DNA from: Arenicellales bacterium
Lineage (GTDB): Bacteria; Pseudomonadota; Gammaproteobacteria; Arenicellales; JAJDZL01
Assembly (NCBI GenBank): GCA_965220725.1
Contig: OZ244840.1
Location: 1,869,399 to 1,933,398, forward strand
Direction of reading: 5' to 3'
DNA: 64,000 nucleotides
The notes under the pieces were generated by a model. The model was not told the origin of the DNA. It made no database searches and saw only the letters and a program-made list of their open reading frames with translations. The number at the start of each line of letters is the position of its first letter. Positions within the stretch are counted from its first letter, which is position 1. The position numbers and the translations under genes are program-made. Below are positions 1 through 61,493 of the stretch, one piece after another.

Positions 1-17
1 TATACGAAGGTGGATGT

Positions 18-185
18 CTACTGTTTTACTTGCTTGCTTTTTTGTTCTGCTTCTTCTCGGGCCTTGCGGACTTCTATGGCATAAAGCCTATCTAACTCGT
101 CTGTTACAACTTTAAGTTCCTCCGATGCTTGTCGGTAGGCCTCTTGAAGTGGATCGGAGTAGTCAATGATCCTTTTTTCACCCAT
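18..185 (-). CDS. small hypothetical helical protein (55 aa), paralog of 460..744
   Basis: Manual translation MGEKRIIDYSDPLQEAYRQASEELKVVTDELDRLYAIEVRKAREEAEQKSKQVKQ*. GAAGGT precedes the ATG. N-terminus is nearly identical to the neighbouring ORF. Below the ORF-track size cut-off. Confidence 0.75.
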   Translation of the reverse strand: MGEKRIIDYSDPLQEAYRQASEELKVVTDELDRLYAIEVRKAREEAEQKSKQVKQ

Positions 186-459
186 ATCTGCCACCTTCCA
201 GATTTACTGATTTTCTACGATGATTATAGACGGAACAGAGCCACAGGGCAGGTGCTGGTTCACAGGAATTTAGAAGGTAACTGGTGAATCTTGGCGAACA
301 TTGACATCGGATCATGTATCTTGTTCTCGAAAACTAAAGACTTTCTGCCGTCATGAGTAAACTTGAAGTCAAATTATCCGCTGAACATTTCAATCCAACA
401 ATTTATTCGATTGAAATTGGATAATCTGAGACTTGATCATTTGCTGGCGCGAGGATTAC

Positions 460-744
460 CTATTGGTTATCTGATTCTTCCTTTTGTCTCTGTGCTTCTT
501 TCTTGGCTTTAGCGATTCTTTTTCGATAAAGTCGGTTCAATTCGTCGGTTACCGGTCGGAGTTCTTCCGATGCTTGTTGATAGGCTTGATTAAGAGGACT
601 CGTTTCATCAGGAACCCAACCTTTGGCGATTCTTTCTCTGTAGAGCCGATTTAGTTCGTCAGTTACGACTTGAAGTTCTTCGCATGCTTGCCGATAGGCT
701 TCTTGAAGTGGATTCGAGTAATCAATAATCCTTTTCTCACCCAT
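460..744 (-). CDS. small hypothetical helical protein with an internal duplication (94 aa)
   Basis: Strong RBS AGGAGG before ATG 744 (MGEKRIIDYS). Two copies of PLxxAYxQAxEELxxVTDELNRLYRxRIAK. Confidence 0.8.
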   Translation of the reverse strand: MGEKRIIDYSNPLQEAYRQACEELQVVTDELNRLYRERIAKGWVPDETSPLNQAYQQASEELRPVTDELNRLYRKRIAKAKKEAQRQKEESDNQ

Positions 745-1281
745 ATCAATAACCTCCTGATTAATCAATTCCCTACTGTGATTATAGACGTAACATGACC
801 ACAGTGTGTTGTGACGGTGCTGGTAATTGGAAGTTGGTCGGTGAATTTTGGCAGCAAATTGATATTGGGTCTTTCATCTCGTTATCAAAATCATTCCAAC
901 ATCCAAACGATGATTCTCCGCTCTGGCAGAGAGGGAATCGTTTGCTGACAGTAATCGAGATTTTTCCCAACACTACGGTGTGGATCAATATGGTAAGACA
1001 AGGGTAAGTTAGGGAACTGCAAGCATACTGATGATTTACCTGCTACTGTGACCGGCATTGCTCTTTCTTTGGTTGCAATCAGCGTTTCCATCTTCGCAAA
1101 TACAGACACTGTCTGCTAGCGGATATGTGTTACGAGATAGTTTTTCCATTCCGATGGAGGGAAAAACGGTTCTATTGAACGCAATATAATCAAATAAAGC
1201 ACAGGCGAAGAGAAATATTTTGCACGCTCTTGCAACTGGTCCAATCGATTTTCACACCGTTAACCCAACAGCCACAGCTGA

Positions 1282-2439
1282 ATGAAAATTATGGTACGCG
1301 CACCTGTCAATCCAACTCTGGTTAGCTGGGCATTGGACAGAGCCGATGTTAACCGTGAAAAATTTATTGTCAGATTTCCCAAAATTTTGGATTGGGAAGA
1401 GGGCGTGACCCAACCCACGCTCAAGCAATTGAGGTTGTTTGCGCGCGCTGTTCATGTTCCTATAGGCTATCTGTTTTTACCAGAACCGCCACAGGAAACC
1501 GTACCGATTCCTGACTTTCGTACGGTTGGAAATCAAGCAGTGACTCGCCCGAGCCCAAACCTGTTGGATACTGTCTACGCATGCCAAGCGCGACAGAGTT
1601 GGTATCGTGAATATGCCGAGTTGGAGAAACAACCCGCACTGAGTTTTGTTGGTAGTTTGACGACCGACGTGCCTCCAGATGTTGCAGCAAGCAAGATATG
1701 TGAATTTGTTGGCTTTACCCTTGAAGCACGTAGTTCATGCTCAAACTGGGAAGATTCTCTGCGCTTGTTTGTACGGCAGGCTGATGCCGCTGGTGTTCTT
1801 GTAATGGTAAACGGTGTTGTGGGCAACAATACTCACCGACGCCTAAACCCTGAGGAATTTCGTGGCTTCGCTCTGTCTGACGAATTGGCACCACTGATAT
1901 TTGTCAATGGTGCCGATGCCAAAGCCGCGCAGATTTTCACTCTTGCCCACGAACTAGCCCATCTCTGGCTCGGCGACTCAGCGCTTTCCAGTATAGGAGC
2001 ATTTCCGCAGTCTTGCACCCGGCAACAAGAGATCTGGTGTAACGCTGTCGCAGCTGAAATGTTGGTGCCTCTTTCCAGTATTCAACTGGAACTGAAAGAC
2101 GAGGAACCCTTGTCTGAAACCCTGCAGCGCTTGGGTAATATCTACAAGGTTAGTTCACTCGTAATACTTCGTCGCCTCCTTGATGTTGGCTATGTCGACC
2201 GAACCATTTTCGACAAGGAATGGAAAACACGATTAGCGAATCTCCAATCCAGAGCACGTAGCGATGGCACAGGAGGTGGTGATTTTTATAAAACGGTGTT
2301 TGTTCGGTCAAGTAACCGATTTACACGAGCCCTTGTGGCAAGCACACTAGAGGGCTATACGCTACATCGTGATGCTTTCCGGATGCTTGGCATTTCAAAA
2401 ACCAGAACATTCCACATGATTGCGAACGAGTTGGAATAA
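1282..2439 (+). CDS. ImmA/IrrE family metallopeptidase with N-terminal XRE-like HTH
   Basis: WEEGVTQPTLKQL HTH segment, EFRGFAL, and the HExxH motif FTLAHELAHLW. Confidence 0.9.
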   Translation: MKIMVRAPVNPTLVSWALDRADVNREKFIVRFPKILDWEEGVTQPTLKQLRLFARAVHVPIGYLFLPEPPQETVPIPDFRTVGNQAVTRPSPNLLDTVYACQARQSWYREYAELEKQPALSFVGSLTTDVPPDVAASKICEFVGFTLEARSSCSNWEDSLRLFVRQADAAGVLVMVNGVVGNNTHRRLNPEEFRGFALSDELAPLIFVNGADAKAAQIFTLAHELAHLWLGDSALSSIGAFPQSCTRQQEIWCNAVAAEMLVPLSSIQLELKDEEPLSETLQRLGNIYKVSSLVILRRLLDVGYVDRTIFDKEWKTRLANLQSRARSDGTGGGDFYKTVFVRSSNRFTRALVASTLEGYTLHRDAFRMLGISKTRTFHMIANELE

Positions 2440-2534
2440 TTTGTAGATCAGCAGATATTCAATAGTTGATAGTCAGAATTACTGTCGTATACTTGTTGCG
2501 TCAATTTCATTCACCAAATCAATTCACTATCCCT

Positions 2535-3464
2535 GTGCAATATTTTCCAGTCATTGACTTGTCCGGCCTGAATGGGCGCGACTCGAATTCGAATCTCTCC
2601 ATTGGCGAGCAGATTTGCGACGCCGCGCATTCCTACGGCTTTTTCTACGTGAAAAACCACGGTGTTTCAGAAGAGTTGCTCGAGTCTGTTTTTGATACGG
2701 CGCAGAAGTTTTTCTCACTGCCCGTGCATGAGAAGTCGGAAGTCACGATTTCGAAATTTCATCGCGGATTTCTGGGAATCGGCGCATCAACCATGGAAGG
2801 GTACAGCGAAGCTGACCGCAAGGAGAGCTACATCTGGGGATTGGATGTTGAGCCGGACGAATCACACACGCAAGACGCCAAGAAACTGTTGGCTGAGAAT
2901 CGCTGGCCCAACTCCATGCCGGAGATGCCGGCTGTGCTGAATGAATATTTCCATTCAGTTCACAATTGCGCTTTTCGGATACTGGAAGCCGCTGCGGAAT
3001 TTCTCGGGCAGGACCGAGACTTCTTTTCCAGGAATTTCAATCGACCCACGTCGAGAGGATCCATGATTTATTATCCACCGGATTCAGAGTCCAAAGGTGA
3101 GTACGGAGTCTCGCCACATACGGATTTCGGGTGTCTTTCGATACTGGCACAACGCAGTTCAGGACTGCGGGTCAAGTCGAAAGACGGTGAGTGGCATCGC
3201 GCAGACCCGATTTCAGGAACCTTTGTCGTCAATGTTGGAGATCTTCTCTCGCGATGGACGAATGACAGATTCAGTTCGGTGTCGCACTGTGTCGTAAACG
3301 AAAACACAGATGCCCGGTATTCGGTGGTGGTTTTCGTCGATCCGGATACCCAGACAGTGATTGACCCTATACTCACGCAGGGTGAGACTGCAAACTATGA
3401 GCCGATAGACTGCGACACCTACATTACGCGTCGGTTTGATCGATCGTTCGCCTATCGGAACTGA
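2535..3464 (+). CDS. 2OG-Fe(II) oxygenase, isopenicillin N synthase family
   Basis: PVIDLS, GFFYVKNHGV, HTD...H facial triad, RYS motif. GTG start at 2535 preferred over TTG 2466. Confidence 0.9.
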   Translation: MQYFPVIDLSGLNGRDSNSNLSIGEQICDAAHSYGFFYVKNHGVSEELLESVFDTAQKFFSLPVHEKSEVTISKFHRGFLGIGASTMEGYSEADRKESYIWGLDVEPDESHTQDAKKLLAENRWPNSMPEMPAVLNEYFHSVHNCAFRILEAAAEFLGQDRDFFSRNFNRPTSRGSMIYYPPDSESKGEYGVSPHTDFGCLSILAQRSSGLRVKSKDGEWHRADPISGTFVVNVGDLLSRWTNDRFSSVSHCVVNENTDARYSVVVFVDPDTQTVIDPILTQGETANYEPIDCDTYITRRFDRSFAYRN

Positions 3465-3492
3465 TTCTCAGCATTTTCGAGAAGTGCCAGAT

Positions 3493-4062
3493 ATGAGTGC
3501 CTGGATTCGAATGATTTCCGATGCGGAAGCCGCCGGAAAGACCAAACAGGCTCTGGATGCTGCCAGGACACCGCACGGGACCGTTGACAACGTTCTACGA
3601 GTCCATGGTTTGCGGCCTCACACCATGCATGGGCATATCACGCTTTATCGAAGCGTGTTGCATCATGAGGACAATTCGATTCCGCTTTGGTTTTTAGAGA
3701 CAGCCGGTACCTATACCAGCATACTGAACAACTGTGCGTACAGTGTCACCCATCATAGTCTGAACCTCCGGCGCCTCATTGCGGATGATGACCGATCCAA
3801 GGTCGTGCTTGACGCACTCAATGACCGACAGCCGCAACGGGCGTTCGACGGAAAGGAGTTGGCGATGCTTGAATACGTCGAGAAATTGACGCTGCATGTG
3901 GGAGAATTAACCAAGGATGATTTCGATCCCCTGATCGACGCTGGATGTGAGGACGCTGAAATTCTGGAATTGAATCAGGTTGTAGGGTATTTCTGTTATG
4001 TGAACCGACTGCTCAATGGATTGGGTGTGACAACCGAAGGAGACGTAATCGGATATTACTGA
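3493..4062 (+). CDS. AhpD/carboxymuconolactone decarboxylase-like peroxidase-related protein
   Basis: NNCAYSVTHH and EILELNQVVGYFCYVNR motifs; ATG at 3493. Confidence 0.8.
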   Translation: MSAWIRMISDAEAAGKTKQALDAARTPHGTVDNVLRVHGLRPHTMHGHITLYRSVLHHEDNSIPLWFLETAGTYTSILNNCAYSVTHHSLNLRRLIADDDRSKVVLDALNDRQPQRAFDGKELAMLEYVEKLTLHVGELTKDDFDPLIDAGCEDAEILELNQVVGYFCYVNRLLNGLGVTTEGDVIGYY

Positions 4063-4115
4063 TTCTCAAGAATTCGAAGCTTTCATCGACGAAACCACCA
4101 CAGAAACCCAGACTG

Positions 4116-47510: not shown

Positions 47511-48422
47511 TCAAATGTGTTTTATCTCATACTGCCAATCGGGAAGCTTTGAAAGTGCTGTAGCGACACAACTACGGTGACACATAGTTGCATCAGCTTC
47601 AAAGCATGTAATGGCAATTCGCTTATAGCTCCGGAACACTTGATTCAGCATATCAATTGCATGAGAATTCTGCTTAAGCGTTGTTGCTTCGTAGTCATCG
47701 AATAAATGCTCATAGTCTTGCATTGAACGTAAGTTTTTTCGTTTCTTCGAGTCAATTCCCAATTCTGGAAAATGTAAATACTCAATATTTAGTTTGTTCA
47801 ATGTATCCGATAAGGTTGATTGAGAAAAACCATAACTTCGACTAAACGGATTTCGCCTGACATCGCACAGGATTCTTACATTATTCTGAATCAATCGATT
47901 CAAGTAGTTCTCAAAGGAATTTCCTTCATAACCAATAGTGAATAGTCTGTATCCATCACTTTTTGGCCTTGCGTTGTCTATTTTGGCTAGTTCTTCACGA
48001 TTCATCAAATATGCGGCTTTCTCACTGTTTATCGCAAAGTACGGAAAATTTCTATACACGTGGCGAACTAAAGAGTCTCCCTTTAATCTTCTGAATTTAT
48101 TGACAAACGAAATGATCTTTTCTTGATCAGACGTATCGATTTGTGAGATATAGTCAGCATCAACAGATGTTAATCTCCAGTAACCTTCTTCATCCACAAT
48201 TGCTCCAATGCCGATTAGACGCCGTCGATCCGCGTAAGATTGGAATGAAAAACATCCGAATTTATACGGAACAAACTCATAACTTTTTCCAAGGTCATAA
48301 GTTTGTGTAAGCAAAAACAAATACTTCTGCAGATCTATGTTCGACAAACGTCCTCCAAAAGCTTGTAGCAAGGCTAGAACTAATTTTTGACGTCGGAACA
48401 AGAATATTCTGGGTTGAGCCAT
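47511..48422 (-). CDS. DUF488 domain protein with N-terminal wHTH-like (Panacea/DarG-C-like) domain
   Basis: C-terminal LFTIGYEG, DVRRNPFSR, ELGI and CFEAD...CHR; N-terminal LQKYLFL...FVPYKFGCFS. Confidence 0.82.
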   Translation of the reverse strand: MAQPRIFLFRRQKLVLALLQAFGGRLSNIDLQKYLFLLTQTYDLGKSYEFVPYKFGCFSFQSYADRRRLIGIGAIVDEEGYWRLTSVDADYISQIDTSDQEKIISFVNKFRRLKGDSLVRHVYRNFPYFAINSEKAAYLMNREELAKIDNARPKSDGYRLFTIGYEGNSFENYLNRLIQNNVRILCDVRRNPFSRSYGFSQSTLSDTLNKLNIEYLHFPELGIDSKKRKNLRSMQDYEHLFDDYEATTLKQNSHAIDMLNQVFRSYKRIAITCFEADATMCHRSCVATALSKLPDWQYEIKHI

Positions 48423-55445: not shown

Positions 55446-56054
55446 CCCTTGATCTGAATTGCTCCGTTTTCTGGACCGATCCATCCATCACAAAACTGCT
55501 GCATTCCTAGTTGGCAAGCGCCGAACTGAGTTATCTTAGGTATTATCAATTTGGTACCGGATTACCTTGAATTGGTGTGATCGGTTCAGCGATTGAAGAC
55601 TTTCTTTTCTTCAAACGATTGACAAGACCATTTAATTCTGGCGAGTCTGCTCGCATACAGTCTGAAAGTCCAAACAGCTCCTCATCCTGAATTTTAGAGC
55701 GCGCATTTATATTCCTCTGTTAAAACGAATAGATAGCGTTCAGTATTTCAGTAAACCTGGGGCAATTCCATTACCTCAATGTCTGCTTGCTTATATCGTT
55801 CCTGTCCGGATGTCTTTATGGGGAGATATGCTGGATTTTTGCTATCGTAGCAAATTCAATCGAAGTTGGTGTCAATTATTAATACGAACTTGACTTGAAA
55901 GCGAATAAGGCTGACTCCATGAAGGAGCAAGACAAAGTCTGCGAGGACGTTGCATCGGACAATCTGAATCGGGACGCTGCTTGAGTCATCCGATGTTGCG
56001 CACTACTTTTGGCAATATCTTGATTTCATACAAAAATTGCCTCTACTAAATTAG

Positions 56055-56423
56055 CTAGTATTCCTCGCTTTTAAAAGATTTTATATATTGTAGAATTTCT
56101 GCTTTCGGTAGTTTAATTTCAGCATCTCCAGGTGATTTGAATGCACCAATGAGAATAAAAGCCACAATGATAGTTACTGATACTATTGGTGTAATGCCTA
56201 AGAGGACAACTAGATTTCCAATTTCTTTCAAATCTACCAATAAAGAAAGTATCACTACTTCGAAAATGCCAACTGAAATTATGATTGCAACCGCGACAAT
56301 CAAAACAAACCACCTTACTCTCATATGGTGTCTGTCTAACGGATCCAGTAGTTTGATTCCCTCTCTGTCAAGAAACTCAACATCTGGGTCAGAAATGTCA
56401 GTTTTTGGATTTTGATCGTTCAA
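56055..56423 (-). CDS. 2-TM hypothetical protein, candidate toxin partner of Panacea
   Basis: Two long hydrophobic stretches; overlaps the 3' end of the Panacea gene; AT-rich. Confidence 0.65.
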   Translation of the reverse strand: MNDQNPKTDISDPDVEFLDREGIKLLDPLDRHHMRVRWFVLIVAVAIIISVGIFEVVILSLLVDLKEIGNLVVLLGITPIVSVTIIVAFILIGAFKSPGDAEIKLPKAEILQYIKSFKSEEY

Positions 56424-56883
56424 GTTTACTTTTGAAATGCTCTAAGATCAGTTCATTTGAAATCACTATGCCCAACACGTTAGGTCTATAGACTTGATCC
56501 CATGGTCCGCCAGGAATATGCGTTAGCTGCGTTAGTTGACGGTCGCTCAAATGTTCATACAATTTATATACAGTTTCCATAAACCGGCTAATTTCTTCAT
56601 TTATCAGTTGCTCTTTCAGTATGGGAACTTTCGAAAGGTTATAGACTCCATTAGGTCTGAACGCGTAATAAATAGTTGGAATCACGGGCCCATATTTCCA
56701 TGCTTGGACATAATCATTAACTAATGGCTCATCGAATATTGCCAATGTCCAACCATGCGTCATATAAGTGAGTTTCAACAGACGCATTATTGACATGGAA
56801 TCCCCATGCCGATCTGCGATGTCAATGAGGTGATTAGCGATTTGCCGGCTTTCGTACGGCAGACCTAATTCTTGAGAAGTCAT
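56398..56883 (-). CDS. Panacea (SocA/GepA, DUF4065) domain antitoxin
   Basis: LLKLTYMTHG, AWKYGPV, LTH..GGPW. Confidence 0.9.
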   Translation of the reverse strand: MTSQELGLPYESRQIANHLIDIADRHGDSMSIMRLLKLTYMTHGWTLAIFDEPLVNDYVQAWKYGPVIPTIYYAFRPNGVYNLSKVPILKEQLINEEISRFMETVYKLYEHLSDRQLTQLTHIPGGPWDQVYRPNVLGIVISNELILEHFKSKLERSKSKN

Positions 56884-57054
56884 CGTTCTTACGACTCATT
56901 AAATTCCAATTGGATTAGTCTATTGTCAGTATAGCCACTTATAACACTATTGGCCGAATCTATAGTGTGGATTTTCATTTTCCCTTATTCGGCCGGGTTC
57001 ACGCATGTCTTAGACTGTTTGCTTGTCTATATCTCCACAGATAGTATTCAGTTT

Positions 57055-57291
57055 TGGTTGAACTCGTTGCGGCCCACATGAGTTTCGCCAACCTCAAATT
57101 CACCTGTCAGTCTATCACAATCGGCGCCGCAAGCCTCTCGACTACGTTGTAGCATAAACCAAGCACTTTTCTGAATTACATCAGTCTCTTTTGAGAGTTG
57201 CATACTGTTTTATCATTACGGGAAGCCATGAGGGATTAGATTGCGTAAATCCAGTGATTCGAAAGAATTTTAGAACGTTTGAACATCGTGC
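57055..57291 (-). pseudogene. IS1595-family transposase remnant, 3' part
   Basis: TMFKRSKI..HWIYAI* then SMQLSKETDVIQKSAWFMLQRSREAC..LTGEFEVGETHVG; contains a stop, a frameshift and loss of the catalytic Asp. Confidence 0.8.
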
Positions 57292-57310
57292 TGTTGTTTT
57301 TCACTTTAAT
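57292..57310 (+). repeat. terminal inverted repeat TGTTGTTTTTCACTTTAAT
   Basis: Exact reverse complement of 61348-61366. Confidence 0.95.
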
Positions 57311-57418
57311 TCGAACGACTTATCCCGGATTAAATTGTCGCCAAGGGAGCGGTTTGTGTCGGATTGTACCGAAGAGTGTATTCAGCCGGGTCGGGCCAAT
57401 GTGGTATTTGCGGTGTCA

Positions 57419-58336
57419 TCAGCGGAAGATTTCGGGACAGGTTGACGGGTCATGGCCTCGGTCGCGGTGCATGATCGGCTGTCCGCGGCGTTGGATGAGC
57501 ATTTGGTTCCAGGTTTCAGCACTGGGTTTCATGATTCTGGCATTGGGCATGTTGCGCGACAGCCTGGAGCTTCGTGCGCTGGCGTTTCGGGTGTTGGCGA
57601 AGGCGATGACGGTGGGCATTTCCCGCTGTGATTCGAGCCATTCGGGCAGGCTGTGGTGGTGGTTGGTGGCACTGATCAGGACGGATTTGGGGAACGGATG
57701 GTACAGTTGCAGCATTGACAGGGCTTCAATGGCGTTGTCGACCAGGATGGCGGAGACCGGTGGCGGTGCGCCGGTTTGGATCCAGAAGCCACCGGCGTTG
57801 CGTTTGGAGTCTGGCGGTGTCAGTGAATGGAACAGTCGATGCGGTGCGGTGCCGAACAATTCGGCACCGATAGGGTTGCCGTTGAGGTCGGCGCGGACGA
57901 ATACGGCGCTTTGCATGATGCCGGCATAGAGCAGTTTGTGTTGGCGGCACTGGTCGATCAGCCGGCGGTGCAGGGCGCGGCGCCGGCACAGGTGATGTTC
58001 GACTGTGCTCCAGGCTTGGGGCACGGCGCTCGGCAGCACCTGTTGGCGGTATTGCGGGTCGAGATATTCCAGCGCCTCCAGGCAACCGCAGTTGTTGGCA
58101 TGCATGACGAGGGCGAGCTCACCGATGCCGCCGCGGCGCCGTGTGTAGTCGTAGAAGCGATCACCGTTGATGGAGATGACCGACTCGTCTTTTCGCAGCC
58201 GCGTCGGCTCGGCGGGATCGCGACGGTAGCCGAGTCGCCTGGCGAGTTGCCGCAGTGCGGCCGATGCGTCCTGGTGCTGTTTGCCGGTCATGGGACGCAT
58301 CGGTTTGCTGACCGGCTCAGATCTGCAGTTCCTCAT
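57419..58336 (-). CDS. DUF3991/Toprim-like (primase-related) protein, apparently non-catalytic
   Basis: RFYDY..GGIGELALVMH, LCRRRAL, AVF, GAELFGT, GGFW, ILVDNAIEALS, IAFANT, TWNQML. Start uncertain (58336, 58300 or 58291). Confidence 0.7.
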   Translation of the reverse strand: MRNCRSEPVSKPMRPMTGKQHQDASAALRQLARRLGYRRDPAEPTRLRKDESVISINGDRFYDYTRRRGGIGELALVMHANNCGCLEALEYLDPQYRQQVLPSAVPQAWSTVEHHLCRRRALHRRLIDQCRQHKLLYAGIMQSAVFVRADLNGNPIGAELFGTAPHRLFHSLTPPDSKRNAGGFWIQTGAPPPVSAILVDNAIEALSMLQLYHPFPKSVLISATNHHHSLPEWLESQREMPTVIAFANTRNASARSSRLSRNMPNARIMKPSAETWNQMLIQRRGQPIMHRDRGHDPSTCPEIFR

Positions 58337-59120
58337 AGGCCTGTTGCATGTGTCGCAGTTCGACCTGATGCTGGTTGTCCGTCGCGGCGGCGGTGAGGGC
58401 ATGGTGTGCCAGTCGGTTGACCAACCGCGGCATGCCGTTGGCGTGGCGGTGCATCAGTTCGATGGCGTTGTCCCTGAAGTAGGGGATATCGGCACCGCCG
58501 GCGACCTGCATGCGGTGTTGCACATAGGCCGCGGTCTCATTCATGGTCAGTGCGCTGAAGTGATGCTGCACCACCAGGCGCTGGCACAGCGACTCATGGG
58601 CGGCCATGGCGATACGCCGCCGCAACGGTGTCAATCCCACCAGCAACAACCGCAGGTGCTGTGTGGAGTCGAAGTCGAAACTGCTGACCAGGCGAAGTTC
58701 CTCGAGTGCGGCGTTTTGCAGGTGGTGCGCCTCATCGACGACCAGCACCGGGGTCAGTTTCTTCTCGGTCACCATGCGTTCGAGTTCCTGACGGATGATG
58801 CGCCAGACATCCGCTCGGCGGCGCACCGGCGGCAGGCCCAGTTCGGTACCGATCATGTTCAGCGTGTCGAGCACGCTGCCGGTGGTGAGTGACACGTGCA
58901 TCACCCGGTACAGTCCGTCGTGCAGGCTGTGTGCCACCGCCCGGCACACGGTCGACTTGCCGCTGCCGGCCTCACCGGTGATCATACCGATGCCGCCGAC
59001 ATCGACCAGCAGTTTGATGCGCGCCTCGGCCTCGGCCTGGGCGGCGCTTTCGAACAGTTGTGTCACCGGCACTGAGGCCTCGAACGGAAAGCCGGTCAGT
59101 GAGAAGTGTTGCAGATACAT
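58317..59120 (-). CDS. ExeA-family AAA+ ATPase (transposition helper, analogous to MuB/TnsC/IstB)
   Basis: MYLQHFSL..FPF, GEAGSGKS, VVDEAHHL, GMPRLVN; TGATG overlap with the transposase stop. Confidence 0.92.
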   Translation of the reverse strand: MYLQHFSLTGFPFEASVPVTQLFESAAQAEAEARIKLLVDVGGIGMITGEAGSGKSTVCRAVAHSLHDGLYRVMHVSLTTGSVLDTLNMIGTELGLPPVRRRADVWRIIRQELERMVTEKKLTPVLVVDEAHHLQNAALEELRLVSSFDFDSTQHLRLLLVGLTPLRRRIAMAAHESLCQRLVVQHHFSALTMNETAAYVQHRMQVAGGADIPYFRDNAIELMHRHANGMPRLVNRLAHHALTAAATDNQHQVELRHMQQAYEELQI

Positions 59121-60415
59121 CAGCGTTGCTCCCGGCGATTGGCCAGTTTGCGCAGTTCGATCGGCGGTCGCTGGCGGCGCACGCGGGCGTTGGCGTGCAG
59201 GTTCAGCGGTTGCGCCTCACCGGCCGCGGTCTGATCCCGGTAGACCAGCAACGGTGCCTGCGGCTGTGCTGTCGGATCATAGCGCAGCGTCACGCGCTGT
59301 CCGATCAGTTGCGCATCAACCTCGTAAAGATGGTTGTTGAGTTGTACCGTACGGTCGTTGCGCACCCGCCGCATTGCCTCGAACAGAAACATCTGCTCCA
59401 GATCGGTCGCGGCATCGACCAGGCGCACCTTCGAGCCGGCCTGCGCCCACTTGTCCAGCGGCGTCAGACCGTCGAGTCCGCGGTGCGGTGTGCGATGATA
59501 CTCGCCCTCGAGCCAGGCCCTGAAACGGCTGTTGAGTTCCCCGATCGAGGTGCGTGCGGTGTCGGGCAGCTGTTCGAGAAAGCGCATCCGACAGGTTCGG
59601 AAAAACCGCTCGATCTTGCCCTTGCCGGCCGGCGTGTAGGGGCGCGCATGGATCAGCACGATATCCAGCCGTGCGCACACCAGCGCCAACTGCTGTGACC
59701 GGTAGCTGGCGCCGTTGTCGACATACAGCCGGTCCGGCAGGCCGCGGCGCATCAGCGCCTGCTTGAACACCTGCTGGAAGTTCACCAGGTTCTCGGAGAA
59801 CGCAAACGCCGCATAGGGCACCACCCGGGTGGCATCATCGATGAATGCGATCAGATACGTGCGCCGCAGGCGCTGTGAGTCATCCCTGACCGTCGGGCCA
59901 TACATCACATCGCTCATCCACAACTCACCGGCGTGCTCATAGGCGAAACGGCGTCGGTCCTGCGTGACGGTGTTGTCGGCCGGGCGCATCAGTCCCTCGC
60001 GGCTCAGCAACCGATGCACGGTCGAGCGCGGCAGTTCGACCCGGTCGTCGGGTTGCTCCTTGCGCACCCGGGCGATCACATCATCCACGCTGAGGTGCAT
60101 GGCATTGCGCTTGGTCGCCAGCAGGGCCTCGATCATGTTGGTGCTCAGACGCCGCGACCGGCCGCGATCGGCGCGGCGCTTCGGGCACAACGCATCAAAT
60201 CCGCCCTGGCGGTAACTGCGCATCCACTCGCGAAGCGTCGACACCGACACCCGGGTGCGGTGACTGCCCGGTATCTGGTGTTCGCGTTCCGAACACTCGG
60301 TGAGCGCCGCTCTGAGTTGTGGCGAACCCGCCGGCATGCGCAGCAACTCAACGATGACGCCGTAACGAAACAGCGCAATCTGCTTGGCCTGTCGGTCCAA
60401 ATCCTGCTCCGACAT
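59120..60415 (-). CDS. DDE transposase/integrase with Mu-transposase-like C-terminal domain
   Basis: HTH (STLREW), WMSD, FIDDATR, YVDNG, GKIERFF, YHRTPH, VTLRYDP; RBS GGAGG before ATG 60415. Confidence 0.94.
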   Translation of the reverse strand: MSEQDLDRQAKQIALFRYGVIVELLRMPAGSPQLRAALTECSEREHQIPGSHRTRVSVSTLREWMRSYRQGGFDALCPKRRADRGRSRRLSTNMIEALLATKRNAMHLSVDDVIARVRKEQPDDRVELPRSTVHRLLSREGLMRPADNTVTQDRRRFAYEHAGELWMSDVMYGPTVRDDSQRLRRTYLIAFIDDATRVVPYAAFAFSENLVNFQQVFKQALMRRGLPDRLYVDNGASYRSQQLALVCARLDIVLIHARPYTPAGKGKIERFFRTCRMRFLEQLPDTARTSIGELNSRFRAWLEGEYHRTPHRGLDGLTPLDKWAQAGSKVRLVDAATDLEQMFLFEAMRRVRNDRTVQLNNHLYEVDAQLIGQRVTLRYDPTAQPQAPLLVYRDQTAAGEAQPLNLHANARVRRQRPPIELRKLANRREQR

Positions 60416-60442
60416 GTGATTCCTCCTTCCGCAACAACGGAA

Positions 60443-60461
60443 ATTACAGTGAAAAGCCACC
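60443..60461. promoter_or_regulatory. internal TIR-like site upstream of the transposase RBS
   Basis: ATTACAGTGAAAAGCCACC matches TIR ATTAAAGTGAAAAACAACA at 15/19 positions. Confidence 0.55.
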
Positions 60462-60462
60462 A

Positions 60463-61083
60463 TTAGAGCCGCGGCGGCGCCCGGATCGCGCTCACGCACT
60501 GTTGGTGCCCGCTGAGCGGCTGTCGTTGCAGATTGTTTCGAGCGAATCCCAGCGGCCCCGGCAACTGATCCAAGTGCCCGGCACCCAGTCCCCTGAGTGC
60601 CACCAGCAACCGATCCTGCGCCATGCGCTGACGAAACGATGACAGCGTCGGCTCACAGCCGGCCAGCTGTTGCGGATAAAGTCCGATCAACACTGTCAGA
60701 ACTGTCGTCAGACACCGTACCTGACGGCGCAGCCACTGACGCTGTACCGCCACCTCACTGCACCGCGACAGCACCGGTGGCCCTACCGATGGCCGACCCG
60801 CCTCGTAGGCCGTCACCGCCTGTTCGATGTGATCCAGCGTGCCCGGCCGACCGGCCGCAAAACAGTCCGCCAGCAGACTGAAGGTGCACTGCGCCTTGGG
60901 GCAATACCAACGCGGTATCGGTGCCTCAGTCCCCAAATCCGTATATCGTGTGTAAGTGCCGTGCCGGGTCATGCCGCAACCACCCTTCGGATGGACCGGA
61001 CAGCGAGAAAGTGTGATCGAACGCCACGCCTCTGTGTTAACATATTGCTCGGCATCGAGGCCGCACTCGTACCGTATCTGCAT
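60463..61083 (-). CDS. transposon helper protein with Cys/His-rich N-terminus (DUF6431-like)
   Basis: CPVH...C...HGTYTR...RWYCPKAQCTFSLL; first gene of the element. Confidence 0.75.
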   Translation of the reverse strand: MQIRYECGLDAEQYVNTEAWRSITLSRCPVHPKGGCGMTRHGTYTRYTDLGTEAPIPRWYCPKAQCTFSLLADCFAAGRPGTLDHIEQAVTAYEAGRPSVGPPVLSRCSEVAVQRQWLRRQVRCLTTVLTVLIGLYPQQLAGCEPTLSSFRQRMAQDRLLVALRGLGAGHLDQLPGPLGFARNNLQRQPLSGHQQCVSAIRAPPRL

Positions 61084-61347
61084 GAATTGTTGCGTGTTGC
61101 CGCCTCTGTGTCAGCCAACCGGCAGCGCGCTCGGATTCTGACCTTGGTGCAACTGCCGGATGGGTTATCGTTGTGACCCGGTGCCGACTCAATGAGCCGG
61201 CACCGGGTCCTTTCAGTCCCATGTTACCCCGACACCGACATCCGTTTCATGTGATTCTCGCAATACCATAAAAAAAACGGTCTGGTCGCACATTATCCTG
61301 ACCGACCAAACCGTTTATTGTGGGACAAATACAGTGTATTACGTCAT

Positions 61348-61366
61348 ATTAAAGTGAAAAACAACA
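61348..61366 (-). repeat. terminal inverted repeat
   Basis: ATTAAAGTGAAAAACAACA followed by TSD CGTGC. Confidence 0.95.
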
Positions 61367-61493
61367 CGTGCCAGTTCGAACGCAAAAAACCATTCCACCT
61401 TCTTTTTTCTAAGTATTCCTGTGCTGAAATTGCGTTAGGGCATTGTTGCATCAATTGGTATACACTCGTTGCGGAGTTGGTTTGTTTTACCAT
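61367..61493 (-). pseudogene. IS1595-family transposase remnant, 5' part
   Basis: MVKQTNSATSVYQLMQQCPNAISAQEYLEKRRWNG, then a frameshift into FCVRTG; the zinc-ribbon segment is missing. Confidence 0.7.

Follow-up and report, generated by a model that had tools for sequence, protein, structure and literature searches.

Introduction

Tn6049 is a 3.5-kb transposon described in Cupriavidus metallidurans CH34, where it is present in 12 copies, each with an ATPase gene annotated as 'gspA' (PMC2864759). According to the account of plasmid pHS87a, its ends are 12-bp imperfect repeats starting with TGTGC (TGTGCaTaAGCA) and it is accompanied by a 4-bp duplication (PMC4739549). Van Houdt (2012; PMC3414803, Table S5) listed 'Tn6049 related transposons' from beta-, gamma- and delta-proteobacteria, whose genes follow the order 'Mob prot - TnpA - ATPase - UF'. 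The group is widespread and often multi-copy, and the available text of the publications mentioning Tn6049 yielded no mechanistic experiments on it. Here we describe a 4075-bp transposon with four genes, all on the minus strand, that occupies positions 57292-61366 of a 64,000-nucleotide stretch of DNA, hereafter the window, from an Arenicellales bacterium (Gammaproteobacteria; GenBank assembly GCA_965220725.1, contig OZ244840.1, positions 1,869,399 to 1,933,398).

Transposons that combine a DDE transposase with an AAA+ ATPase, such as Mu, Tn7 and the CRISPR-associated transposons (CAST), and IS21, are the best models for target choice and the basis of programmable insertion tools. An earlier inspection of the same DNA from its letters alone (the sequence-only reading) had proposed that the locus is a recently active member of a poorly described family using this kind of chemistry. 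The analysis presented here points to an autonomous, recently active Tn6049-related transposon with Mu-like machinery and a fourth gene slot that may be linked to replication, an explanation to which we assign a probability of roughly 0.75.

Results

The ends of the element are formed by a perfect 19-bp terminal inverted repeat starting with TGTTG (TGTTGTTTTTCACTTTAAT). The repeat next to the fourth open reading frame (ORF4) begins with TGT and is located at 57292-57310 on the plus strand. It is 100% complementary to the ORF1-proximal repeat at 61348-61366 on the minus strand, and it forms the edge of all four copies found in the genome. The same five bases, CGTGC, stand on both sides as the left (57287-57291) and right (61367-61371) copies of the target-site duplication. 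The host genome, a single contig of 2.94 Mb, contains four copies of the element with 100% identity. All of them span exactly bases 1-4075, so that the copy edges coincide with the tips of the repeats. One further copy is flanked by its own 5-bp duplication, CCATT/CCATT. The other two, at G000:C1:493883-497957 (L003) and G000:C1:529982-534056 (L002), are oppositely oriented and separated by about 32 kb, and the halves of their duplications are swapped, GCCCA...TGTGG at one and TGTGG...GCCCA at the other. The swap indicates that an inversion of the intervening segment, about 32 kb long, has taken place, a pattern that is expected from one intramolecular replicative transposition and lends weak support to such an event.

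Public data agreed with the copy number. In run X1 the element was assembled as its own 4075-bp contig with a word depth of 493.9 versus 105-135 in the flank contigs, and in run X2, again as a 4075-bp contig, with a depth of 25.4 versus 4-8 in the flanks. Both ratios fit about four copies. The contigs of two further public runs matched the element without any difference. The G+C content is 0.60-0.66 within the element versus 0.39-0.45 in the flanks. These data bore out what the sequence-only reading had stated about the perfect repeats, the 5-bp duplication, the elevated G+C content, the exact ends and recent activity: the transposon is genuine, complete and recently active.

When the flanks were queried separately against 30 genomes of the same genus in search of an empty target site, only piecewise matches were obtained, which were never adjacent, and a blastn search of plasmids with the whole element gave no match. 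The four insertion sites of this genome and six sites of relatives have no evident common sequence. Left of the insertion, positions 55800-57200 of the window have a G+C content of 0.35-0.44 versus 0.52-0.59 further left, and this low value suggests that the insertion may lie within an island acquired at an earlier time. Older traces are present elsewhere in the genome. At G000:C1:2414436-2414676 (L005) there is a 240-bp remnant of a diverged relative, 76% identical and containing stop codons. It covers the end of the ATPase gene and the start of ORF4, so that the present copies must be younger than the junction between these genes. At G000:C1:406091-406121 (L006) the ORF1-proximal end was observed as an isolated copy of 31 bp.

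The transposition machinery is encoded by two overlapping genes. The tnpA gene (59120-60418, minus strand), with GGAGG located 7 nt ahead of its ATG, codes for a DDE transposase of 432 aa with helix-turn-helix domains, an rve core and a Mu-transposase C-terminal domain (Pfam HTH_32, rve and Mu-transpos_C). Its residues D170, D234 and E270 are shared by all 11 transposases of an alignment. The best sequence matches in the PDB were TnsB of ShCAST (E 6e-8) and IstA of the IS21-family element IS5376 (E 5e-4). TnpA scored 208.9 bits with the NCBIfam IS481 model, under the equivalog cut-off of 224, and 37.7 bits with the IS21 model, which has a cut-off of 160. The stop codon of tnpA overlaps the start codon of the ATPase gene as TGATG at 59120. 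The ATPase (58317-59120, minus strand, 267 aa) is an AAA+ protein of the AAA_22 family (Pfam, 83 bits) with both ExeA/GspA-like and MuB-like features. Its Walker A (G49, G52, G54, K55) and Walker B (D129, E130) residues are invariant in 11 of 11 ATPases. The triad, the Walker motifs and the translational coupling therefore stood as first read. The label ExeA-like held in part: the best NCBIfam match was TIGR03015, an ExeA-like PEP-CTERM ATPase, at 152 bits and under the cut-off of 324.5, and a correction is needed in that the best sequence match among solved structures was MuB of phage Mu (8xvb, E 5.3e-5). In phage Mu, the Mu-type C-terminal domain of the transposase contacts MuB.

The Pfam search found no IstB_IS21 domain (PF01695) in the ATPase, and none of the four proteins of the element matched TnsA, TniQ, TnsC or resolvase families in Pfam, searched to E 10 for ORF1 and ORF4, or in NCBIfam. 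The pairing of a DDE transposase with a dedicated AAA+ ATPase recalls MuA/MuB, TnsB/TnsC of Tn7 and CAST, and IstA/IstB of IS21, as do the TG/CA ends, the 5-bp duplication and the Mu-type C-terminal domain. Unlike Mu, Tn7 and IS21, the element has no phage genes, TnsA, TniQ, TnsD, IstB_IS21 domain or arrays of end sites. Judging from these comparisons, it would resemble Mu, Tn7 and IS21 in the way it works while being a member of none of them, in agreement with the earlier view that its chemistry is of the Mu/Tn7 kind and that it fits neither IS21 nor Tn7 nor Tn5053.

The operon is led by ORF1 (60463-61083, minus strand), a 206-aa protein with a Cys/His zinc-ribbon-like region and a helical C-terminal half. 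It had no match in Pfam (to E 10) or NCBIfam. Its family comprises 108 homologous clusters with the conserved pattern CPxHP...C...RWYC...TFSLLxD, and the comparison of profiles with three DUF6431 proteins (hhalign) gave a probability of 95.8% and an E value of 6.7e-9 over 91 columns, identifying it as a divergent DUF6431 relative. The AlphaFold2 (AF2) model, with a mean confidence (pLDDT) of 81.5, consists of a three-stranded ribbon followed by helices. Foldseek retrieved nothing from the PDB at E<=0.001 and the best Z score in VIA-align was 3.7, results that do not show a new fold. Neither ORF1 nor ORF4 belongs to a defence family in PADLOC.

Comparison with the Tn6049 copy on pMOL28 connected the element to a named family. 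This copy has four genes, for proteins of 181, 479, 277 and 71 aa. The two transposases are 28% identical over 427 columns (BLASTP, E 1e-29) and the two ATPases, both AAA_22, 25% identical (E 1e-13). No similarity was detectable between ORF1 and the first protein of Tn6049, which itself matches DUF6431 weakly (E 3.6e-4, probability 37%). Both elements have four co-oriented genes. The first codes in each for a small Cys-rich protein, the two being at most doubtfully homologous, and is followed by genes for a DDE transposase, an AAA_22 'GspA' ATPase and a fourth protein. Both elements are multi-copy with TGT...ACA ends and duplications of 4-5 bp. They differ in length (4075 bp versus 3.5 kb), in the low identity of the homologous proteins (25-28%), in the terminal repeats (19 bp and perfect versus 12 bp and imperfect) and in the fourth gene, which codes for a 293-aa DnaG-fold protein here and for a 71-aa protein in Tn6049, the 'UF' of the family having about 65-135 aa. 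By these similarities the element can be assigned to the Tn6049-related transposons, a family that is named yet mechanistically unstudied. The description of the family as poorly known was consequently right about its mechanism and wrong about its standing, since it had a name and a gene order in print (PMC3414803). What would have spoken against the sequence-only reading, namely that the element falls into a characterised family whose gene set is the same, came true only halfway because the family is uncharacterised and its fourth gene is different.

The closest annotated relatives were found on plasmids. A tblastn search revealed units of a DUF6431 gene, a DDE transposase gene, an ATPase gene and a small ORF on C. 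necator pBB2, Geobacillus pGS18 and a megaplasmid of Acidithiobacillus caldus. Their transposases are 41-42% (pBB2 and pGS18) and 37% (A. caldus) identical to TnpA, the ATPase of pBB2 is 29% identical, and the zinc-ribbon first genes are homologous at the profile level. These units differ in the fourth gene, which on pBB2 and in A. caldus codes for 65 aa and ends in ...LPF or ...PPF. More distant transposase matches include actinobacterial plasmids. No published description of such units was found under 'DUF6431', judging by titles and abstracts.

To collect homologous elements, genomes were scanned with the ORF1 alignment, taking one genome per species, and the gene content of the resulting 50 loci was determined by tblastn. 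ORF1 was accompanied by TnpA (50-57% identical) and the ATPase (43-55% identical) at 26 loci and by TnpA alone at six, mostly cut-off loci. It stood alone at the remaining 18. An ORF4 homologue was present at a single locus (L040). The relatives belong to alpha-, beta-, gamma- and delta-proteobacteria and Myxococcota, with one Coriobacteriia record. Those with both ends mapped measure 3.4-3.5 kb, start with TGTTG and have 5-bp duplications: CTCCT, GCCGC and CCCCC at three copies in one assembly, CGTGT at another locus and GCTTG at a further one. Counting also the longer member in G046 described below, such duplications were found at six insertions (L043, L044, L045, L051, L054 and G046). Mapping of ends and targets in homologous elements, as proposed in the sequence-only reading, thus gave the same type of ends and duplications. 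Candidate ends at L023, L026, L040 and L056 were not counted as mapped, their inverted repeats having no matching duplication.

Multi-copy relatives of the ORF1 family were present in four of 30 other species of the genus. One genome of the genus, with five ORF1-family matches, has a family member of 4075 bp with the duplication GCAAT (L169, G046:C6:1157600-1163000). A second locus of the genus (L167, G009:C1:2672100-2677100) is probably a broken copy. Its transposase match falls into two parts, residues 4-281 and residues 265-430, separated by about 420 bp, one TGA lies within the ORF1 match, and the G009 genome also has five ORF1-family matches. Proteins of the ORF1 family with 40-44% identity were also observed directly before three tyrosine-recombinase genes (L041:2933-7236, L027:6001-9763, L028, L029 and L039). 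At L041, perfect inverted repeats of at least 24 bp enclose ORF1 and the recombinase trio, in all 4304 bp. Tyrosine-recombinase trios inserted in Tn6049-type transposase genes are mentioned by Van Houdt (PMC3414803). No transposase remnant was found at the loci with ORF1 and a recombinase trio.

The fourth position of the operon is the variable one. At 24 loci the DNA after the ATPase gene could be read. Fourteen of them have a fourth protein of 68-136 aa with the motif Q-[LR]-x-[LM]-[FLW] within its last 13 residues (e.g., QLDLF, QLALF or QLRLL), which occurred in 17 of 1376 background ORFs, these fourth genes included. The background consisted of every ORF in the 50 loci that starts with ATG and has 60 aa or more. 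The fourth proteins of eight of the 24 loci end in [DN][DE]x[IL]PF, and exactly these eight carry this ending among the 1376 ORFs. Eight others end in ...PPF, ...PLF, ...LNF or ...ICF. Since the loci are mutually related, these counts show conservation and not independent events. The sequence QLxLF is the consensus for the binding of insertion sequence transposases to the beta clamp and is located at the transposase C-terminus (PMC4549789), and DDDIPF is the conserved C-terminal tip of SSB (single-stranded DNA-binding protein), which binds partners including DnaG (PMC5872125). The host SSB ends in DDIPW. The C-terminal QLxLF-type motif of the small fourth protein makes the relatives similar to TnsE of Tn7 and to the transposases that bind the beta clamp. 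They differ in having the motif on a small protein of its own, in which an SSB-tip-like DDxIPF often comes after it, and the element described here has no QLxLF-type motif. The 71-aa protein of Tn6049 has the WTPxQAxAVxELL core of the small fourth proteins. Other occupants of the slot are a 251-aa AAA_25/DnaB_C-like ATPase at L169 and the primase-like protein, found at one of the 24 loci (L040).

In this element the fourth gene is ORF4 (57419-58300, minus strand, 293 aa). Its ATG lies 16 nt past the ATPase stop codon, with other possible starts at 58402 and 58291, and 127 bp separate the gene from the end of the element. DUF3991 alone was matched in Pfam (28.3 bits). A HMMER search of 1.84 billion representatives recovered 470 homologues at E<=1e-3, mostly with DUF3991 and Toprim_2 domains, of which the closest is 38% identical. 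Some are free-standing, with about 290 aa, and others form fusions with Mob_Pre or TrwC relaxases and with giant conjugative proteins. A word-index search of 5.8 billion clusters returned ORF4 itself and no close relative, and ORF4 was not found in 24 genomes of the genus. The AF2 model (pLDDT 87.5) resembled the primase of T7 gp4 (1nui, E 2e-6), the zinc-binding and polymerase domains of Aquifex DnaG (2au3, E 2e-5), the core of E. coli DnaG (1dde, E 6e-4) and Twinkle in Foldseek searches. On the strength of this model, ORF4 is predicted to share the DnaG-type fold, with a zinc-less domain resembling the zinc-binding domain, an RNA-polymerase subdomain and a Toprim-like domain. The description of the gene as primase-like was accordingly upheld as to fold. 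As to catalysis it was not, and the gene is not a feature of the family (one of 50 relatives).

The loss of motifs was examined in 149 homologues, counting aligned positions only. The Toprim Glu, conserved in 117 of 131 sequences, is Asp in ORF4. The first and second Asp of the DxD motif (111/117 and 106/115) are replaced by Ala and Thr, so that ORF4 reads A-N-T, and the Gly that follows (108/112) is Ala. The Asp of KDWN (103/108) is Thr and that of GGGGAIDL (126/133) is Ala. This last segment, for which the zinc-ligand motif of CHC2 served as comparison, reads GGIGELAL and has no Cys/His zinc ligands. In contrast to ORF4, the homologues at L040 and L072 have all motifs intact. ORF4 is thus like the DnaG primases and the plasmid DUF3991-Toprim modules fused to Mob_Pre or TrwC in fold and family membership, but it differs from DnaG in having neither zinc ligands nor a helicase-binding domain, and in the replaced Toprim Glu and DxD. 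A prediction of the complex between the ATPase and ORF4 gave a score of 0.00, which is no evidence for or against binding. Publications on DUF3991, judged by titles and abstracts, contained nothing related.

A different setting of the same gene family emerged from a survey of the best 80 metagenome loci, which were chosen by their likeness to ORF4, include many close kin and do not represent natural frequencies. At 50 of them an IstB_IS21 ATPase gene is located directly upstream of the DUF3991-Toprim gene. Where the contig is long enough to show it, these loci have a five-gene unit of about 5 kb, composed of a small ORF, a protein with a ParB/KorB helix-turn-helix (310-370 aa), an IstA-like transposase (about 490-500 aa), IstB_IS21 and a DUF3991-Toprim protein with intact motifs (among L083-L151, e.g., L098:223-4709, L141:173-4805 and L099:434-5025). 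One locus (L072) is of the Tn6049 type, with the primase-like gene after a 44%-identical ATPase, and eight had too little upstream DNA to judge. Most of the remaining 21 encode a protein of 540-634 aa. Domain scans of L074 and L116 revealed Mob_Pre fusions, and from their length the others are presumably the same. At L077:1475-5461 a free-standing DUF3991-Toprim gene adjoins a Tn3-family transposase gene, and at L073:480-4924 such a gene is flanked on one side by a tyrosine recombinase and on the other by an IstA-like transposase encoded on the opposite strand. A description of primase-bearing IS21-type units was not found in the available text of the literature on IS21, IstB, Toprim and primase, including PMC8649781.

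Several features outside the coding regions may be regulatory. Between ORF1 and tnpA, at 60443-60458 (minus strand), the motif scan detected a look-alike of the terminal repeat with 13 of 16 identical bases. A scan of the window for the repeat with up to three mismatches gave four matches versus 0.38 expected, namely the two termini, this site and an unrelated one at 48239. The look-alike might be a site for transposase binding or autoregulation. A G+C-rich 16-bp hairpin or palindrome is located in the leader that precedes ORF1 (61175-61209, minus strand; RNA fold -34.8 kcal/mol, z -8.4), and the relatives have a different conserved G+C-rich hairpin immediately before ORF1. Just inside the ORF1-proximal end, a terminator-like hairpin followed by U8 reads inward (61268-61316, minus strand; RNA fold -23.6 kcal/mol, z -6.5). 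It was absent from the output of a simple terminator scan, and it probably blocks transcription entering from outside. The sole candidate of a promoter scan, at 61114-61086, was distrusted for leaving no leader before the conserved start of ORF1, and a match to RF00043 in Rfam (23.4 bits versus a gathering score of 55) was at chance level.

Discussion

If the element works as its homologues do, TnpA would bind the 19-bp terminal repeats, nick the 3′ CA ends and join them to the target with a 5-bp stagger. The translationally coupled AAA_22 ATPase would act as an ATP-dependent activator or selector of target DNA like MuB, TnsC or IstB, and ORF1 is probably a conserved DNA-binding or regulatory accessory. 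Because neither a TnsA-like second nuclease nor a resolvase is encoded, transposition is most likely replicative or replication-coupled, in which case host recombination would resolve any cointegrates. The fourth slot may then connect the product of strand transfer with the replication machinery of the host through one of three kinds of protein: a small protein with a beta-clamp and SSB-tip-like tail, an AAA_25 ATPase resembling DnaB or a protein with the DnaG fold. That two unrelated types of transposase-ATPase operons end with the primase-like gene argues for a role in transposition. Having lost the acidic residues of its Toprim domain, ORF4 would serve at most as a non-catalytic adaptor. 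For ORF4 itself this role has close to even odds, while continued enzymatic activity is improbable. A broader proposal, that the fourth slots of Tn6049-type and five-gene IS21-like transposons hold interchangeable replisome adaptors, represented here by a non-catalytic primase fold, is put forward tentatively and should be regarded as doubtful.

The strongest competing explanation is that ORF4 is a catalytically dead passenger, captured from a plasmid or an IS21-like unit and now decaying, and that a three-gene core does the work. Such an origin deserves serious consideration, although its odds fall short of even. It would account for the loss of five to six near-invariant acidic and glycine residues that the other two Tn6049-type loci retain, for the rarity of the combination (one of 50 ORF1-based and one of 80 ORF4-based loci) and for a closest homologue at 38% identity with no close one in the clusters or the genomes of the genus. 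It is harder to reconcile with a frame that is open over 293 codons and has a confident predicted fold, albeit a prediction that leans on the alignment, or with the location of ORF4 in the exact slot where relatives have other replication-related proteins. Its gene family also recurs as the last gene of transposase-ATPase operons (50/80), and the diverged remnant indicates that the ATPase-ORF4 junction predates the burst of the present copies.

Two other explanations concern the machinery as a whole. The element could be an insertion sequence of the IS481 family with passengers, in which TnpA is sufficient and moves the DNA by copy-out-paste-in through a circular intermediate, like its IS3/IS481 relatives. 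The IS481 score, the annotation of the Tn6049 and pGS18 homologues as 'IS481 family transposase' in RefSeq, the TGT ends, the short duplication and the single terminal repeat per end all suggest this. Yet that score lies under the family cut-off, TnpA has a Mu-type C-terminal domain, the ATPase is MuB-like and translationally coupled, and the set of ORF1, TnpA and ATPase has been retained from 50% to about 25% identity across phyla. Members of the IS481 family have a single transposase gene in about 1-1.3 kb, in contrast to the four genes in 4075 bp found here, and we consider this explanation rather unlikely. Still less probable is a minimal targeted transposon of the Tn7/Tn5053 type in which ORF1 takes the role of TniQ or TnsD in choosing target sites. 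A TnsB-like core, an AAA+ partner, a 5-bp duplication and a leading zinc-ribbon protein would be in its favor, but the TniQ, TnsA, TnsC and resolvase families were unmatched, and the four insertion sites of this genome and the six of the relatives lack an evident common sequence. ORF1 homologues also lead tyrosine-recombinase trios, which points to a generic role and not to one like that of TniQ. ORF1 has no match among solved folds either, although the weakness or absence of such a match does not speak for a different fold.

A Tn6049-related transposon with Mu-like machinery and a replication-linked fourth slot remains the preferred explanation, and several observations weigh against it. ORF4 has lost the near-invariant Toprim Glu, the DxD Asps and the Asp of the GGGGAIDL segment. 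Even without these motifs the element multiplied to four identical copies, so primase chemistry is evidently not needed for its movement, and ORF4 may for this reason be a passenger. The primase-like gene is present at only three loci of the family. The tail motifs are short, the loci that carry them are related, and they were counted in relatives and not in this element. Homologous recombination between two inverted copies that had inserted independently would account equally well for the swapped duplication halves at L002 and L003. Neither an end-to-end circle junction nor an empty, flank-to-flank site was seen in the contigs of the four runs, where rare forms cannot appear. There are no arrays of subterminal transposase sites of the Mu/Tn7 kind, only a single repeat per end, in a scan that sites diverging from the terminal repeat would escape. 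This single repeat and the near-cut-off IS481 score fit a simple IS3/IS481 copy-out-paste-in mechanism as well. Finally, every mechanistic step proposed above is drawn from homology, as it would be for all members of the family.

New in this work are a primase-fold fourth gene with catalytic loss, the tail motifs of the usual fourth protein and the occurrence of the primase-like gene in IS21-type units. The exact ends, the four identical active copies and the compact operon make the element a ready template for a mini-transposon assay. In its host it has left two copies that bracket an inverted segment of about 32 kb. If the pattern of the fourth slot is true, it would represent a novel type of link between a transposon and the replication fork, and small transposons with a DDE transposase and an AAA+ ATPase would themselves supply the means to couple strand transfer to replication or its restart.

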